This document shows positions 57,440 to 64,000 of a stretch of 64,000 bases of DNA, one piece after another. The position numbers and the translations under genes are program-made. Within the stretch, counting starts at the first letter, position 1, and each line of letters opens with the position of its first letter. Source of the stretch: Chthoniobacteraceae bacterium (GTDB lineage: Bacteria > Verrucomicrobiota > Verrucomicrobiia > Chthoniobacterales > Chthoniobacteraceae); NCBI GenBank assembly GCA_031409335.1, contig JANNWY010000083.1, forward strand, positions 32,001 through 96,000. The letters are read 5' to 3'. Below the pieces are notes generated by a model, which saw only the letters and a program-made list of their open reading frames with translations, did no database searches and was not told where the DNA came from.

Positions 57440-59527
57440 ATGCAAATCCGCTTCACCATTCGACGCCGAGGCTTTGCAAGCGCCCTCTGTTTTCTGCTGG
57501 CTTGGTCTGCGATCGTCGTCGGGGGTGAAGCTGCGAAAGACGAAACGCCGATCAAGGTTTCCCATGCGCCGAAGCAACCGAAGTCCGGGGAACGTGTGGT
57601 GATCACAGTGGAAACGCAGCGTCCGCTGAAGACGGAGAGTCTGGTTTTGCAATATCAAGTGGTCGATCCGGGCAACTACATCGACTTGCGCGCTCCTGCC
57701 TACGCCACGGACTGGAAGGAAGCCGCGCTATCAAGTGCGGTGCGCGCGACCTCGGCAGCCAGCCGAACTGCGTTCAAAGCGGAGCTTCCGCCCGAATTGC
57801 AAACGAATCGGCGCTTGATTCGTTACCGCATTTTCTCGACCGAAAGCAAAGCCGTCGTGGCGCCAGACGCGAAGGATACGCAGCCGAACTTCGCGTATTT
57901 CGTCTATGACGGCATTCCGGAATGGCGCGGTGCGGTGAATCCGAAAGGCACCGGGCCGGAGAAGAAGGTTGTCACCTTCGATCAAAAAGTGATGCGCAGC
58001 TTGCAAGCCTATCATCTCATCGCGGAGCGGCGTGCCGTCGAGAACGTCACCTGGCACGACCCAAAGGGTTTTATGAACCCAGCCGGCAGTGAGTATGAAT
58101 ACACCGGGACGCTCGTCGCGGAGGGAGCGGTGTATGACCATGTCCGCTTTCGGGCGCGCGGCGGCCAGTGGCGCCATGCCACGGGCAAGAACATGTGGAA
58201 GATCGACTTCCTGAAAGGCCACCGCCTGGAAGCGCGTGATAACTGGGGCCGGAAGTATCCCAAAAAATGGGACAAACTGAATCTTAGCGGCTGCATCCAG
58301 CAGGCAGACTACGGAATGCGCGGCGAGCAAGGCATGCTCGATGCCGTATCCTTCAGGCTCTTCAATCTCGCGGGAGTCGAGGCGCCGCATACCCATTGGG
58401 TGCAGTTCCGAATCGTGGATGCGCCGGAGGAAACTCCCGATGACCAGTACCGCGGCGACTTCTGGGGATTGTATCTCGCGATCGAGAACGTCGATGACCA
58501 ATTCATCGAGACCCACGACTTGCCGGACGGCAATCTTTACAAGATGGACTTCAACGGTCCTGAACCAAAGCACCTGGCTGCGGATGCCCCGGATGATCGA
58601 GCCGACGTGCTTCAGTTCATGCGCGACCTGCGCCGGAATCCCAATGTCGATTGGTGGCGGACCCATGTCGATCTACCCCGCTACTACAGCTATCGCTCCA
58701 TCCTGGAAAGCGTTCACCATTACGACATCATGATGGGGAAAAACTACTATTACTTTCGCCCGACAGCCACCAAACGCTGGCAGGTGATCCCATGGGATGT
58801 GGATCTGACATGGTCGGACCGGGCGTATGGCAATGGCGAGGAGCCATTCAAACAGGCCGGCCTGCTGCGCTGCGAACCACTCACGGCAGAGTATCAATCG
58901 CGCCTCATCGAAATCCGCGACCTTCTTTTCAACGCGGAACAAACCGGGGCTTTGATCGATGAATACGCTGCGGTGATCGGTGATCTCAACGGAGGCCGCT
59001 CCTTCGTCGAGGCCGACCGCGCCAAGTGGGACTTTCACCCGATCATGTCCTCGCGATACATCCGGCCCGGCAAGAGCGGTCCCGGTTATTTCTATGGAAA
59101 CTCGCCCACGGGTGACTTCCGTGGGATGGCTCAACTCATGAAGCAGTATGTGGCGCATCGCGGTGAGTGGATAGATCGCACCCTCCTGGCGGATGCCTCC
59201 ATCCCGGCAACGCCGGTGATCGCTCCTGCCGGCCCGCTCGATGCCTCGGCTCCAAGCTGGAAGCTGCGCCTGGCCCGGCCCGCGGCGGCGCAAAAGGTCA
59301 AGTGGCGCCTCGCGGAAATCACGGACACCAAGAACCCTCCGAACCCAACCAGACTGCCGGGCAAATACGAGATCGACGCACTCTGGCAGGCGGAAGGCGG
59401 AGCGGTGGGAGACATTCCGACCAGACGTTTGGAGAAGGGGCATACCTATCGCATCAGGGCTCGCGTCCAGAACGGCGCGGGAAGCTGGAGCCATTGGTCC
59501 GCACCGGAACAAATCACCGTCCGATGA
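57440..59527 (+). CDS. Secreted CotH-kinase family protein
   Basis: Signal peptide; VRFRARGG, WKIDF, FWGLYLAIENVD, GNLYK, KNYYYF, VIPWDVDLTW; FN3-like C-terminus. Confidence 0.85.
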   Translation: MQIRFTIRRRGFASALCFLLAWSAIVVGGEAAKDETPIKVSHAPKQPKSGERVVITVETQRPLKTESLVLQYQVVDPGNYIDLRAPAYATDWKEAALSSAVRATSAASRTAFKAELPPELQTNRRLIRYRIFSTESKAVVAPDAKDTQPNFAYFVYDGIPEWRGAVNPKGTGPEKKVVTFDQKVMRSLQAYHLIAERRAVENVTWHDPKGFMNPAGSEYEYTGTLVAEGAVYDHVRFRARGGQWRHATGKNMWKIDFLKGHRLEARDNWGRKYPKKWDKLNLSGCIQQADYGMRGEQGMLDAVSFRLFNLAGVEAPHTHWVQFRIVDAPEETPDDQYRGDFWGLYLAIENVDDQFIETHDLPDGNLYKMDFNGPEPKHLAADAPDDRADVLQFMRDLRRNPNVDWWRTHVDLPRYYSYRSILESVHHYDIMMGKNYYYFRPTATKRWQVIPWDVDLTWSDRAYGNGEEPFKQAGLLRCEPLTAEYQSRLIEIRDLLFNAEQTGALIDEYAAVIGDLNGGRSFVEADRAKWDFHPIMSSRYIRPGKSGPGYFYGNSPTGDFRGMAQLMKQYVAHRGEWIDRTLLADASIPATPVIAPAGPLDASAPSWKLRLARPAAAQKVKWRLAEITDTKNPPNPTRLPGKYEIDALWQAEGGAVGDIPTRRLEKGHTYRIRARVQNGAGSWSHWSAPEQITVR

Positions 59528-61590
59528 ACTGGCTCCTATCCCGCCTGATTCCATGCTGGTTGCTCATGGCAGTGGCGCGCGGTGATTCCAGCCATGTGGT
59601 GATCAACGAGATCATGTATCATCCGCCGGGCGATCTCGATCTTCTTCAGTTCATCGAGTTATACAATCCAGGCAAAGCCGAGTGCGACCTATCTGGGTGG
59701 GGAATCACCAAGGGTGTGAAGGTTGTCTTCCCAAAGCCAACGAAGCTCGCGCCCGGCGGATTTCTGCTAGTCGTCCGCGACCGCGCCGCATTTGGCGGGC
59801 ACTATGGAAAGGAACTGCCAATCGCGGGGGAGTTCGTGGGAAACCTGAGCCACAATGGTGAACGCATCGAATTGTCGGACGCGGAGGGCAAGGTGATCGA
59901 GACAGTGAAGTATGCCGACGCCGCACCGTGGCCGATGGCTGCGGACGGTCATTCATCGTCAGTCGAACGCATCTGCCCATTTTCCCCCGCGGACGAGGCA
60001 TCGAACTGGGCAGCCTCAAACATCCCGGACCTTGAAACACCCGCGGGCACGCCGGGCCGGGCCAACGATTCGTTTTCCGCAAATCCTCCGCCCGTCATCG
60101 GCGGTGTGATACTGACGCCGGCGATGCCAAGGCCAGCGCAAGCGACGATCGTGGAAGCACTGGTGACCGATGGAGACGGCGTGAAGGCAGTCGAAATGAC
60201 CTATCAAGTCGCGACCGCAGGCAGCCTTGCGGAGCCACTGTCGCTTGCCATGAAGCGCGTTTCTGGCGACGCCAACAAAGGACGTTACCGGGCAACCCTT
60301 CCCGCCCAGCCTGCGGGCCGGCTCGTGCGCTATCGGTTCCGTGCGATCGACGCCGCTGGCACCGCGCGCAATTCGCCCGAGGCGAATGACCTGCGCGGTG
60401 CGTGGAGCTATTCCACTTTTACAAACGACAACACTTCGAAAGTCCCGTTCGGATTCATCCTGCGCCCAGGTAGCGCGCCACTCCGGGGAAAGCCGCGCGG
60501 CTTCGGTGCACCGATTCAAAAAACCACCCGCGGGCGCGACGCATTTGTGTATCTGCCAGCGGGTGGCGGCGAGGTGCATCTGTTTGATTTCATCCAGGCT
60601 CCCCGCCGCAAGGGTGGCTACAAAGTGCGTTTTTTGAAGGATCAAACCTTGCGCGGAATGACGAGCATCAACATCGTCTTCGAGGATTCTCCCCGCTACG
60701 CGCTCTCGGAAGCGTTGTCCTATGAGCTATACCGTCTCGCCGGGGTGCCCGCGGAGATGACGGAGCACATCCGACTATGGGTCGATGGCGAATGCCGTGG
60801 CTATCATTTGTTAGTCGAACAGCCAAACAAGTCCTTCCTCGCCCGAAATGATCGCAACACGAATGGCAATCTTTACAAGCTGATCTGGTATGGCGAAGGA
60901 GTCATCGGCAAGCACGAGAAGAAGTCCAATCAGACCAATGGCCACGATGACTTGATCGCGGCAATCAATGGATTGAAGAACTTGAGCGGCGGCGACCAGT
61001 GGGCTTTCATCCAGCAGCACTTCAACGTGGAGGAATTCATCAACTACTTTGCCGTGAACATGTGCATCCAAAATTGGGATGGCTTTCACAATAACTTCTT
61101 CATCTATCACGACACCGAAGGCACTGGCCTCTGGGAAATCTATCCGTGGGATGAGGACAAGACATGGGGCGACTACGACGGCGCATCACCGAGGTATGAC
61201 TGGTACAAGCTCCCACTCTCCTTCGGCATGGATGGCGATCAGCGCCCAGACTCGCTCGGCGGACCCGCCGCGGGCAATTCCTTCCGGGGATGGTGGCGGG
61301 CGCCGGGATTCTTCAGCGGTCCCCTGCTCGCCAATCCACAGTTTCGCGAACGTTTCCTCGTCCGCCTGCGCCAAGTCTGCGCCACGATTTTTACCGAGGA
61401 GAAAGTGTTCCCGCTGATCAACGCGATGGAAAGCCGGCTCGAAAAAGAGGTGCCAATCCGGGCACAATCCAACCACGAGGACACTGCCCAGGCGGTCGCG
61501 CGCTTTCACAGCGACATGCAGTCTTTTCGTGACCAGGTGACTTACCGGCGGAAGTTCGTGCTCGACGAATTGGACAAGCTCAAGCGATAG
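59524..61590 (+). CDS. Secreted lamin-tail-domain + CotH-kinase family protein
   Basis: ATGA overlap with the upstream gene; VVINEIMYHP..FIELYNP..DLSGW..GTPGRAN (lamin tail); GYKVRF, GNLYK, NWDGFHNNFFIY, YPWDEDKTWG. Confidence 0.87.
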   Translation: MNWLLSRLIPCWLLMAVARGDSSHVVINEIMYHPPGDLDLLQFIELYNPGKAECDLSGWGITKGVKVVFPKPTKLAPGGFLLVVRDRAAFGGHYGKELPIAGEFVGNLSHNGERIELSDAEGKVIETVKYADAAPWPMAADGHSSSVERICPFSPADEASNWAASNIPDLETPAGTPGRANDSFSANPPPVIGGVILTPAMPRPAQATIVEALVTDGDGVKAVEMTYQVATAGSLAEPLSLAMKRVSGDANKGRYRATLPAQPAGRLVRYRFRAIDAAGTARNSPEANDLRGAWSYSTFTNDNTSKVPFGFILRPGSAPLRGKPRGFGAPIQKTTRGRDAFVYLPAGGGEVHLFDFIQAPRRKGGYKVRFLKDQTLRGMTSINIVFEDSPRYALSEALSYELYRLAGVPAEMTEHIRLWVDGECRGYHLLVEQPNKSFLARNDRNTNGNLYKLIWYGEGVIGKHEKKSNQTNGHDDLIAAINGLKNLSGGDQWAFIQQHFNVEEFINYFAVNMCIQNWDGFHNNFFIYHDTEGTGLWEIYPWDEDKTWGDYDGASPRYDWYKLPLSFGMDGDQRPDSLGGPAAGNSFRGWWRAPGFFSGPLLANPQFRERFLVRLRQVCATIFTEEKVFPLINAMESRLEKEVPIRAQSNHEDTAQAVARFHSDMQSFRDQVTYRRKFVLDELDKLKR

Positions 61591-61864: not shown

Positions 61865-62593
61865 GTGAAGCGTCGTCGCACCAACCGCGAATCGAAATCG
61901 CGCCTCGTCCGTGAGGATTCGCCCGAATACGGCGCCACCCCGCCCCGCTTCATTGATCTCTTTTGCGGCATCGGCGGCTTCCGCATCGCCTTCGAGCGGG
62001 CGGGCGGACGCTGCGTCTTCTCCTCCGACTACGACAAATTCAGCCAGCAGACCTACGAGGCGAATTTCGGTGAGCACCCCCACGGCGACATCCACAGCGT
62101 CGCCGTCGCCGACATCCCCGCGCACGACATCCTCTGCGGCAGCTTCCCCTGCCAGCCCTTCAGCATCGCGGGCGTCTCGAAGAAACTGAGCCTCGGCCGC
62201 AAGCACGGCTTCGAGGACGTGAAGCAGGGCAACCTCTTCTTTTCCATTGCCGACATCCTCGACTTCCACCGCCCCGCCGCGTTCGTCCTCGAGAACGTCA
62301 CGAACCTCAAGGGCCACGACGGCGGCAAGACCTTCGAGATCATCCACCGCACCCTCACCGAAGCGCTCGGCTACACCGTCGATCACAAGATCATCGACGC
62401 GCAGAGCGTCGTCCCCCAGCACCGCGAGCGCATCTTCATCGTCGGCTTCCGCGAGCGCGCAAGGGTGGGCTCGTTTAGTAAAAGGGTGCGCGAGCGAGCG
62501 CCGAAGGCACGACCGGTATCTCTCCCTGCTCGTAACGTGCGGTCACCTGCTGCACGAGTTCCAGAAACCACGACCGGGCATCCGGTGCGATGA
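61865..62593 (+). pseudogene. dcm: C-terminally truncated DNA (cytosine-5) methyltransferase
   Basis: Motifs I (DLFCGIGG), IV (FPCQPFS), VI (LENV) and VIII (QHRERIFIVG) present. Similarity ends at about 62455 with no TRD or motifs IX/X; the remaining tail is antisense of the next gene. Confidence 0.8.
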
Positions 62594-63731
62594 GCACTCG
62601 CTCGATCGTCTTTGCCACATTGATCTTTACCCATCGTCCCGCCGAGGCAGTCGGTTCACTCTCCAATTTCAGCAGCGCTGCCATCTTCGTTGGCTCGATG
62701 ATCGCCCTCACCTCGCGCTCATGCTCAAAGGACTTTCGTTTGTAGAGAAATGGCGCGAGCGGATTGCTCTCCGGAATCCATCCTTTCTCATAATCCACGT
62801 AGCGAACCATTCCGACCCGCGCCTGCTCGCCCATCGCCGCCTGCAACTTCCGAAACGTCGTCTGCACACACACCGCCTCGTGTGTGAGCGCGTAGAGCTT
62901 CCACATTGCCGCTGACTCCTGCTCATTGCTGTGCCAGCAACTCACTGCAACGTGTCCGCGCAGGCGCTTCACCATTTCTCCGGCGGTGAGGTGAAAGCGG
63001 TTCGGCAGGTGGTTATAAACTCGTGGTCGAAACTCTTCATTGCCTCGCGCATACGACCCTTCGAATGGGTCCACCAGCATCTCCACCGTCGGGAAGTAGA
63101 GGCCTTCGTTCTGAAGCATCGAGACAAATTTCGTGAAGTCCATGTAGCGCCACAGCGGGATGTCCGGGTCGGCCGGCGGCATGAAGAGAGTATATGGCGC
63201 AGCGTGGCTCTCGCCTGCTCCATTGGCCGACTTCATCCGCGGAACTAAGCCTCGCCGGAGATGATCGAGGTAATTCTCCAAACCAGCTTTTCGAGCTGCA
63301 ATAGCGGCAGCCTTGGCAGGCTCCTCGCCGCCATACTTCTTCACCGTAAAGGGTTTGACGACGATCTTTCTATCGATCCCGGGCCAGTCTGCTGACCAGA
63401 AAGGATAAAAGCGGTCTCCATTCGGAGTCCTCTTTCTGCCATTGGAGCGATAGATTCCGTGCTCAGGGTCAAGATCGACGTCTCCAAACTTCCCATACCC
63501 GATCCCTGAAGCGGCAAACTCATTCTCCATCGCGTCGCGGAAGCGTTGAGCCATCAGCCGCGATGGTTCTTCTCCGCCATACCGATTCCAGTTGAACGAC
63601 TCACTCACCGGCTTTCGCCCCTTGGATGTGAAATGGACCTGCCACGAGCGGGTCCATGAGTTGGTTCCCCTCTTCCGGTAATTCTGCGGACGGATGTTCC
63701 TCATCTCTCCGGTTAGCGGTGCGTGGCGCAT
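62475..63731 (-). CDS. Tandem AP2-like DNA-binding domains fused to a DUF2971-like domain
   Basis: Two repeats (SWQVHF..SESFNWNRYGGEEPSRLMAQRFRD; FWSADW..VKPFTVKKYGGEEPAKAAAIAARK), then LWRYMDFTKF..DPFEG..VSCWH..ESAAMWKLY..KRKSFEHEREVR. Start 63731 or 63704. Confidence 0.75.
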   Translation of the reverse strand: MRHAPLTGEMRNIRPQNYRKRGTNSWTRSWQVHFTSKGRKPVSESFNWNRYGGEEPSRLMAQRFRDAMENEFAASGIGYGKFGDVDLDPEHGIYRSNGRKRTPNGDRFYPFWSADWPGIDRKIVVKPFTVKKYGGEEPAKAAAIAARKAGLENYLDHLRRGLVPRMKSANGAGESHAAPYTLFMPPADPDIPLWRYMDFTKFVSMLQNEGLYFPTVEMLVDPFEGSYARGNEEFRPRVYNHLPNRFHLTAGEMVKRLRGHVAVSCWHSNEQESAAMWKLYALTHEAVCVQTTFRKLQAAMGEQARVGMVRYVDYEKGWIPESNPLAPFLYKRKSFEHEREVRAIIEPTKMAALLKLESEPTASAGRWVKINVAKTIERVLIAPDARSWFLELVQQVTARYEQGEIPVVPSALARAPFY

Positions 63732-63810
63732 CGTTGCAGCCTACAAAAGAGACCGCGCGACGCCAGCGCCGAGACGACGCATTGGATTGGGCGTGATGCC
63801 GTCCATGCAC

Positions 63811-63893
63811 CGGCCCGGAGGGCCGACGGAAATTAGCCGGTGGCGTCAGCCACCGGAACCGCATCCCAACAGAATCCGCCCCGGCAGGGGCGG
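63811..63893. repeat. Three consecutive hairpins beside the IS200-type transposase
   Basis: cggccc-gga-gggccg (63811-63825), ccggtggc-gtca-gccaccgg (63837-63856), ccgcccc-ggca-ggggcgg (63876-63893). Confidence 0.75.
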
Positions 63894-63904
63894 CGGAATC
63901 GCGC

Positions 63905-64000
63905 TCACCACAGATACCGCTCGTCGTATTCCACGCCGCCGAGTCGCAGGAATTCGAGATACTCATCCTGGTAAGTCTGTTTTCGGTGATGCTCCTCCTG
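63905..64000 (-). mobile_element. tnpA: 3' end of an IS200/IS605-family Y1 transposase; runs off the right edge
   Basis: Not in ORF track. Manual translation QEEHHRKQTYQDEYLEFLRLGGVEYDERYLW*, a typical IS200-like TnpA C-terminus. Confidence 0.85.

Follow-up and report, generated by a model that had tools for sequence, protein, structure and literature searches.

A gene joining two N-terminal AP2 domains to a predicted ADP-ribosyltransferase (ART) fold was found in the window, the whole 64,000-nt stretch of Chthoniobacteraceae DNA that was analysed. Relatives in six phyla keep the fusion, and the gene is under purifying selection. Tentatively, and with more doubt than confidence, we propose that the AP2 pair holds the predicted ART on DNA and that ADP-ribose placed on an arginine of a DNA-bound protein would block phage transcription, which would make the gene a one-gene anti-phage system. 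In this proposal, we infer catalysis, the binding of DNA, arginine as the target, the trigger and the defence role.

The longest reading frame across positions 62475-63731 is the minus-strand ORF listed in Table 1. Its GC content is 57% versus 62% for the genome, and its third-position GC is 67% versus 70-90% in four nearby genes. The motifs WRYM (residues 194-197), DPFEG (221), VSCWH (263), MWKLY (276) and KRKSFEHEREVR (331-342), to which the first-pass annotation had drawn attention, are all present in the 418-aa protein. The gene and its junction with the neighbouring dcm are spanned by contigs from two public runs (62416-63845 and 62416-63809), with 1 and 0 differences from the window; either run may be the source sample. 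An artefact or a one-off fusion, a possibility raised earlier, was rejected in view of these contigs, the purifying selection and the family of relatives: the protein search gave 1888 matches among 8000 scored candidates, and 95 near-full-length relatives among the 120 matches listed were aligned with the query.

Table 1. Coordinates of the AP2-ART gene, its parts and its surroundings in the window
Feature	Position	Strand	Description
AP2-AP2-ART gene	62475..63731	-	418 aa; ATG start at 63731; N-terminus M-R-x-x-P conserved
AP2 domain 1	63507..63704	-	Residues 10-75; net charge +7
AP2 domain 2	63252..63467	-	Residues 89-160; net charge +7; Pfam AP2 E 1e-7
Predicted ART-fold domain	62478..63200	-	Residues 178-418; Lsan_0116-like; PADLOC PDC-S31
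Motif I, W-R195-Y-M	63141..63152	-	Strand 1 (model); R and Y invariant in 96/96
Motif II, S264-C-W-H	62931..62942	-	CWH invariant in 96/96; position 264 S in 86%, N in 14%
Motif III, E338-x-E340-x-R342	62706..62720	-	Invariant in 96/96, and in 50 fused and 117 stand-alone domains
TAGGCT, -10-like hexamer	63738..63743	-	6 nt before the ATG
C5 DNA methyltransferase (dcm-like), 5' remnant	61865..62455	+	Convergent with the AP2-ART gene; context, outside the unit
IS200/RAYT-like element, left inverted repeat	63813..63892		29-nt perfect arms; context

As the first-pass annotation had described, the gene lies between a broken dcm and an IS200-type transposase. The dcm remnant comprises the first 197 codons and covers positions 2-168 of the 324 of Pfam DNA_methylase, and its match to a 94%-identical paralogue ends at 62455, 20 bp from the AP2-ART stop codon. 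In relatives, three different dcm end-points were found beside this stop codon. Because of these end-points, and because no dcm 3' half was recognised by eye past the IS, simple insertion of the gene and the IS into dcm was rejected. On the other side, tnpA of the IS200/RAYT-like element runs from 63905 past the window end, with tnpA and the right repeat lying mostly outside the window; the transposase matched Y1_Tnp (Pfam E 1e-20) and is followed by vsr. The element (window 63813-64000, L001:3813-4449) has palindromic inverted ends; a second copy with 84% identity is located on contig C229, and short repeat matches occur elsewhere in the genome. A second dcm..vsr cassette of the same genome (L002:1826-4857, G000 contig C72) is degenerate as well, and in its slot lie a restriction-type HNH gene, oriented likewise, and a 243-aa unknown gene. 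Elsewhere in the window, at 57440-61590, two tandem CotH-kinase-family genes were observed, the second with a lamin-tail domain.

The whole protein was modelled by AlphaFold2 on the family alignment (pLDDT 85.8, pTM 0.77). For residues 187-418, the best structural match was Thermus DarT (Z 9.2, rmsd 3.3, 142 residues aligned), followed by another DarT (8.8) and Tpt1 (Z 8.3), with TreX, scabin and pierisin lower; the top 8 matches included 4 DarT chains and Tpt1. The top five Foldseek matches were all DarT, but at E values of just 0.005-0.01. In the model, R195 lies in strand 192-198, S264-H267 in strand 262-268, and E340 opens strand 340-345; the R-S(CWH)-ExE triad, placed without residue-level superposition, falls on strands 1, 2 and 5, as expected of an ART fold. 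An ART fold with an R-S-E triad had been read from the letters alone, and the C-terminal domain is indeed predicted to adopt the ADP-ribosyltransferase fold; the proposed per-domain fold check also matched both AP2 domains. R195, C265-W266-H267, E338, E340 and R342 were found to be invariant in 96 of 96 proteins (the query and its 95 relatives). The 50 fused domains share their catalytic core with the 117 stand-alone ones, and only two positions are specific to the fusion.

The DUF2971-like character assigned to this domain earlier stood in part. There is a weak Pfam match to DUF2971 (PF11185), and the predicted ART nature holds, but the score of 17.3 bits (E 0.013) misses the cut-off of 22, and a match at E<=0.01 was obtained for 21/96 members (best 0.0006). 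The HYx/Yxx site of HYE-type DUF2971 is absent, RYM and CWH being found instead, and the Lsan_0116 motifs [RK]Y[ML], [CS]WH and ExE are matched exactly by RYM, CWH and ERE. By these motifs, the enzyme domain appears to fit the Lsan_0116 ART family better than DUF2971 proper. According to the accessible text of PMC12522546, DUF2971 is a predicted HYE-type ART; Lsan_0116 is related to it, is itself predicted only, occurs in bacteria, archaea and viruses, and has most of its members treated as predicted secreted effectors. All three motifs by which Lsan_0116 is defined there are common to it and the AP2-ART protein, whereas AP2 is unmentioned in the main text of that paper. Some stand-alone relatives are named DUF2971 by NCBI, and NCBIfam holds nothing for the AP2-ART fusion. 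In PADLOC, the ART domain matched four PDC-S31 models (best E 3.5e-18, an HMM match alone); 7/7 further ART-bearing proteins tested also matched PDC-S31. These models, of 208-273 positions, cover the enzyme domain only and lack the AP2 region; PDC-S31 is a single-gene candidate, and the PDC systems are described as unvalidated in the accessible part of 10.1101/2025.01.08.631726. No Pfam DarT sequence match was obtained for the window protein or the 96-member family, and profile-profile comparison with eight DarT-like proteins gave a 22-column match only, at a probability of 2% and over motif I only. The DarT-like proteins compared have Q/C/H/S-A-E where the AP2-ART family has ExE, and identity to DarT is 8-14%. 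In a viral fold library, the best matches were unnamed phage proteins.

The AP2 fold is best known from DNA-binding proteins of plants and parasites. The two N-terminal repeats recognised in the first-pass annotation (W30-Q-V-H-F...F46-x4-YGGEEP...A61-x3-R65 and W112-S-A-D-W...F128-x4-YGGEEP...A143-x3-R147) match each other at 37% over 57 aa (E 2e-7), and in two predicted models both consist of a three-stranded sheet followed by one helix. The Pfam AP2 (PF00847) score of 32.5 bits is just below the curated cut-off of 33.3 (E 1e-7), and a match at E<=0.01 was obtained for 63/96 family members (best 4e-13). When the AP2 pair was modelled alone (pLDDT 85.6, pTM 0.53), its top four structural matches were apicomplexan chains (Z 5.9-7.8; 9hqv_Yn is named AP2), with Toxoplasma mitoribosome chains at Z 7.7-7.8 and the tandem AP2 of Plasmodium SIP2 at Z 5.9. 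For domain 1, the best match was to a mitoribosome chain of T. gondii (Z 7.8; 57 aa at rmsd 1.2), and domain 2 gave Z 8.3 to 9i05_Xn. The Z values of the AP2-only model, under 8, are middling by the tool's own note, yet agree with Pfam. A sequence search of solved structures gave only three weak AP2 matches (E 0.5-0.9). Conserved Arg/Gln positions were seen in the basic AP2 pair in the alignment of 96; residue 15 is Pro in the window copy versus Arg in 87% of relatives. The whole-protein pTM exceeds the value of ~0.57 that rough arithmetic gives for free-floating AP2 domains, and it therefore suggests that the AP2 domains dock partly on the enzyme.

A profile of the AP2 pair matched 5528 cluster representatives. 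Among the best 150 of these, 17 carried this ART, two an HNH and one an Mrr-like nuclease; a truncated Mrr relative was also present, and most others had AP2 domains only. With two from a separate search, AP2-HNH fusions numbered four proteins in all, and AP2-Mrr was represented by one protein and the truncated relative. The HNH parts of the AP2-HNH fusions match PADLOC restriction-type models. Six proteins with tandem AP2 domains and a restriction-type HNH or Mrr-like nuclease (P0213, P0249, P0267, P0268, P0188 and P0193) are, judging from their domains, candidate AP2-guided restriction enzymes. P0256, HNH-like by eye, was rejected as an HNH fusion, Pfam having given no confirmation. Many proteins of 250-520 aa (P0122-P0266) have apparently three to six AP2 domains and no other Pfam domain. 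A solo tandem-AP2 protein of ~157-176 aa is conserved in Verrucomicrobiota kin, mostly of one genus (L113, L114, L116, L117, L119-L121 and L123), and is possibly an undescribed transcription factor. The tree of the AP2 module, with hand-assigned labels for three rows (ART-type) and one row (HNH-like), did not have the resolution to put events in order.

The 95 near-full-length relatives, among the matches listed, are 36-92% identical to the query. Of the 80 genome loci kept, 24 have both parts (a count that includes the broken L006 and L012 and the cut L013), one is cut, and 55 have the enzyme domain alone. The records with fused forms are named Verrucomicrobiota, Ignavibacteriota, Bacteroidota, Pseudomonadota, Geobacteraceae and Lentisphaerae. 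In the comparison with L004, dN/dS was 0.07 for the AP2 part and 0.09 for the ART part; three of the five comparisons made were wholly or largely saturated. The ESM Atlas contains an 85-member cluster whose sole name is "hypothetical protein". A tree of 172 enzyme domains accounts for its 51 fused rows with 3 label changes, versus 43 for shuffles. All 51 fall under one node, which is supported at only 80% and also takes in seven stand-alone rows (two of these are broken fusions); a single origin of the fusion is possible on this tree. Among 151 genomes of the bacterial family, 30 match some part, four have the fusion (one split, one cut), and two more have deletion remnants. L112 and L118 carry the same internally deleted remnant, in which the final third of the ART domain follows AP2 domain 2, motifs I and II being lost. 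Broken close copies amounted to 7/26, some perhaps through assembly error. No fused form was found in 72,556 plasmid or 50,697 phage records, and 1 of 20 viral-contig loci was fused. As for longer forms, there was one 846-aa match, with 57% of the query covered.

Neighbours within 5 kb of the fused genes were scanned with a home-made ORF caller, ten duplicate or small ORFs being left out, and context was counted at 33 fused loci flanked by 4 kb or more, with 20 random 10-kb windows of the bacterium's own genome as the control. Strict defence neighbours (restriction-modification (RM), Abi, SMODS, TIR and NOV_C) were found at 9/33 fused loci versus 0/20 controls (Fisher p 0.010; 0.034 after two kin pairs were collapsed). 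The broad tally, with toxin-antitoxin, Uma2, HEPN and DUF4062 added, gave 14/33 versus 3/20, which was not significant (p 0.067), and 19/33 fused loci had no defence or toxin-antitoxin neighbour at all. Because the categories were chosen post hoc, the control was one genome and its long genes were cut to 600 aa, the defence context is considered moderate only. The defence-island enrichment anticipated for homologues was seen in the strict tally, alongside the PDC-S31 match, but not in the broad one. RM neighbours occur in the window and at L019, L022, L124, L129 and L140. Among stand-alone ART relatives, 9/40 have such a defence gene among the two nearest genes per side, and two loci lie inside type I RM operons. 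In these two (L042:5471-11817 and L063:5645-11876, Dehalococcoidia), the order is HsdS, Trypsin_2 protease, ART, HsdR; L076 has an HsdR neighbour only, and L048 (Poribacteria) has ResIII and then Trypsin_2 downstream. Loci of the L042/L063 type are possibly an RM-embedded protease and ART backup system.

A DarG-type antitoxin (Macro, NADAR or ARH) was not found in 287 ORFs that neighbour the fused or cut genes, nor were Macro, NADAR or ADP-ribosylglycohydrolase among the nearest genes at 40 loci of stand-alone ART relatives. The 98%-complete genome of this bacterium has no Macro and no NADAR, and its one ADP-ribosylglycohydrolase (ARH) is unlinked to the AP2-ART gene. No conserved partner gene was found across the fused loci; an 83-aa ORF with no Pfam match follows the gene in only three close Verrucomicrobiota loci. 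The patchy spread, the decay and the exchange in the dcm..vsr slot fit a costly, exchangeable defence gene.

No Shine-Dalgarno sequence precedes the AP2-ART ATG, and a similar site was found in 1 of 28 related starts. TAnnnT stands right before the ATG in 8/28 of these starts, which are kin and not independent, versus 0.7% of random ATGs, hinting at a leaderless transcript. In 28 upstream regions, no conserved operator or shared upstream sequence was seen by eye, and some AP2-ART genes begin 2-3 nt past an upstream stop, L139 and L154 leaving little room for an operator. An operator is therefore disfavoured, and the self-regulation suggested in the first-pass annotation finds no support. In one run guessed to be RNA, only short divergent pieces matched the gene.

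In the reading that we favour, the AP2 pair would tether the enzyme to DNA, the trigger would be either DNA of the phage or a change that the phage induces at DNA, a DNA-bound protein would receive ADP-ribose from NAD+ on one of its arginines, and this modification would block phage transcription. We regard the AP2 pair as an addition that sets the target or the trigger, because the enzyme core also occurs alone and barely differs when fused. Since the pair is common to HNH and Mrr nucleases, a targeting role is favoured over self-regulation. The arginine target is proposed because of the ExE motif: in the accessible part of PMC3102197, R-S-ExE marks arginine-specific ARTs, and pierisin (QxE) modifies DNA. 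This rule is drawn from cholera-toxin-type enzymes and may not transfer to the target here, and evidence against the favoured reading comes from the nearest solved folds, DarT and Tpt1, which act on nucleic acids, and from the best structural matches of the AP2 pair, which are Toxoplasma proteins bound to the ribosome. A broader view, that the AP2 pair is an undescribed reader module with swappable warheads (ART, HNH, Mrr) and that its antitoxin-free ART version recognises foreign DNA and ADP-ribosylates DNA or proteins on DNA, is a possibility that we also hold doubtful. If it is true, a site-directed ART would amount to restriction without cutting or to a bacterial counterpart of DNA-activated PARP logic.

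Direct modification of DNA is a close rival to the protein-arginine reading. The AP2 pair would recognise a sequence or a modification of DNA, and the ART, antitoxin-free and DarT-like, would tag the DNA itself, i.e., restriction by ADP-ribosylation. DarT being the top fold match, the presence of the same reader on restriction-type HNH and Mrr nucleases, the RM genes nearby and the likely substrate given for Lsan_0116 in the accessible text of PMC12522546 ("protein or bacteriophage DNA") all point this way. We nevertheless regard it as rather unlikely: ExE is found here versus Q/C/H/S-A-E in DarT-like proteins and QxE in pierisin (PMC3102197, accessible part), a Macro or NADAR eraser is neither linked to the gene nor present in the 98%-complete genome, and the gene travels without a cognate methylase. 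Bulk consumption of NAD, as suggested earlier, would make the protein an NAD+ hydrolase that DNA activates and that kills the infected cell. The gene has no linked target-specific partner, and some ART-fold enzymes only hydrolyse NAD, e.g., rat ART2; however, the accessible part of PMC3102197 has rat ART2 as a QxE enzyme and ExE enzymes as transferring to arginine. Because of the ExE motif, transfer of ADP-ribose is more probable than depletion of NAD, and with transferases as the nearest folds, we consider the latter very unlikely. The poorest prospects are those of an AP2 pair that binds RNA or the ribosome, with the enzyme modifying RNA or a translation factor. Its top AP2 matches are the Toxoplasma mitoribosome chains, and Tpt1, at Z 8.3, is an RNA enzyme, but the AP2 reader is common to DNA nucleases; moreover, to our knowledge few bacterial AP2 structures exist, and the mitoribosome ranking therefore reflects library content.

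It is improbable that the gene has no defence role and encodes a DNA-binding regulator or a stress enzyme or is neutral mobile cargo. The 19/33 loci amid housekeeping or unrecognised genes, the solo AP2 pairs of 157-176 aa in related genomes and the unlinked ADP-ribosylglycohydrolase, which could reverse arginine marks, are compatible with such a role, but they are opposed by the patchy presence, the missing conserved neighbour, the frequent decay, the PDC-S31 match and the stand-alone relatives within type I RM operons (L042, L063). An even smaller chance is given to an AP2 pair that serves as a brake only, keeping the active site shut until the enzyme is freed by a phage trigger, or repressing its own gene. 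Such a brake would be in line with the whole-protein pTM and with the lack of a linked antitoxin gene. However, stand-alone ART relatives are likewise without an eraser among their nearest genes, so an in-cis brake seems unneeded; the fusion-specific ART positions number just 2, and the upstream regions show no conserved sequence and, at L139 and L154, little operator room.

DarTG, a toxin-antitoxin system, defends against phages by ADP-ribosylation. DarT is the closest solved fold to the AP2-ART enzyme (Z 9.2), which differs in that it has ExE in place of x-A-E, is only 8-14% identical, has no DarG and carries a reader module as well. In PARP1, an H-Y-E clade enzyme that makes polymers, N-terminal DNA-binding domains are coupled to an ART domain; this is an analogy only, the reader fold being unrelated and no homology being claimed. 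AP2-HNH homing endonucleases, CasPR repressors and Plasmodium SIP2 resemble the AP2-ART protein in using AP2 as a nucleic-acid reader, SIP2 also in its tandem pair (Z 5.9), but their output is cleavage or repression, whereas the AP2-ART protein has an N-terminal pair and a predicted transferase output. Phage AP2-domain proteins bind specific DNA sites according to the accessible part of 10.64898/2026.02.23.707548 (CasPR). Aristaios of Lactococcus is described in the accessible text of PMC11381338 as a DUF2971 system made up of one gene (316 aa), which is predicted to have an ART fold and has anti-phage activity through abortive infection, and in that of PMC13064643 as affecting phage transcription. 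By these descriptions, it is like the AP2-ART gene in being a single gene with a predicted ART fold and no antitoxin described, and unlike it in being reported as DUF2971 without AP2, DUF2971 proper being HYE-type in the accessible part of PMC12522546. No Lactococcus record was found among the plasmid matches listed or among the ten commonest genera. The idea of ART defence is thus already in print, as a prediction (Lsan_0116) or for a relative (Aristaios). The conserved reader and ART architecture, and the reader common to nucleases, were not found in print, in line with the first-pass annotation, which had known of no description; the literature was searched mostly without subscription papers, the accessible part of PMC13069673 mentions neither AP2 nor PDC-S, and the supplements or database of PMC12522546 might list the architecture.

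In the AP2-ART family, one catalytic core occurs both with a reader and on its own, a natural comparison in which target and trigger are directly testable. The family is relevant to what antitoxin-free ART defence genes (Aristaios, PDC-S31) modify and to how the host escapes harm, and through it immunity becomes a likely role for tandem AP2 domains in bacteria. Should sequence specificity be set by the AP2 pair, the protein would be an ADP-ribosyltransferase with natural targeting, which could interest tool developers.
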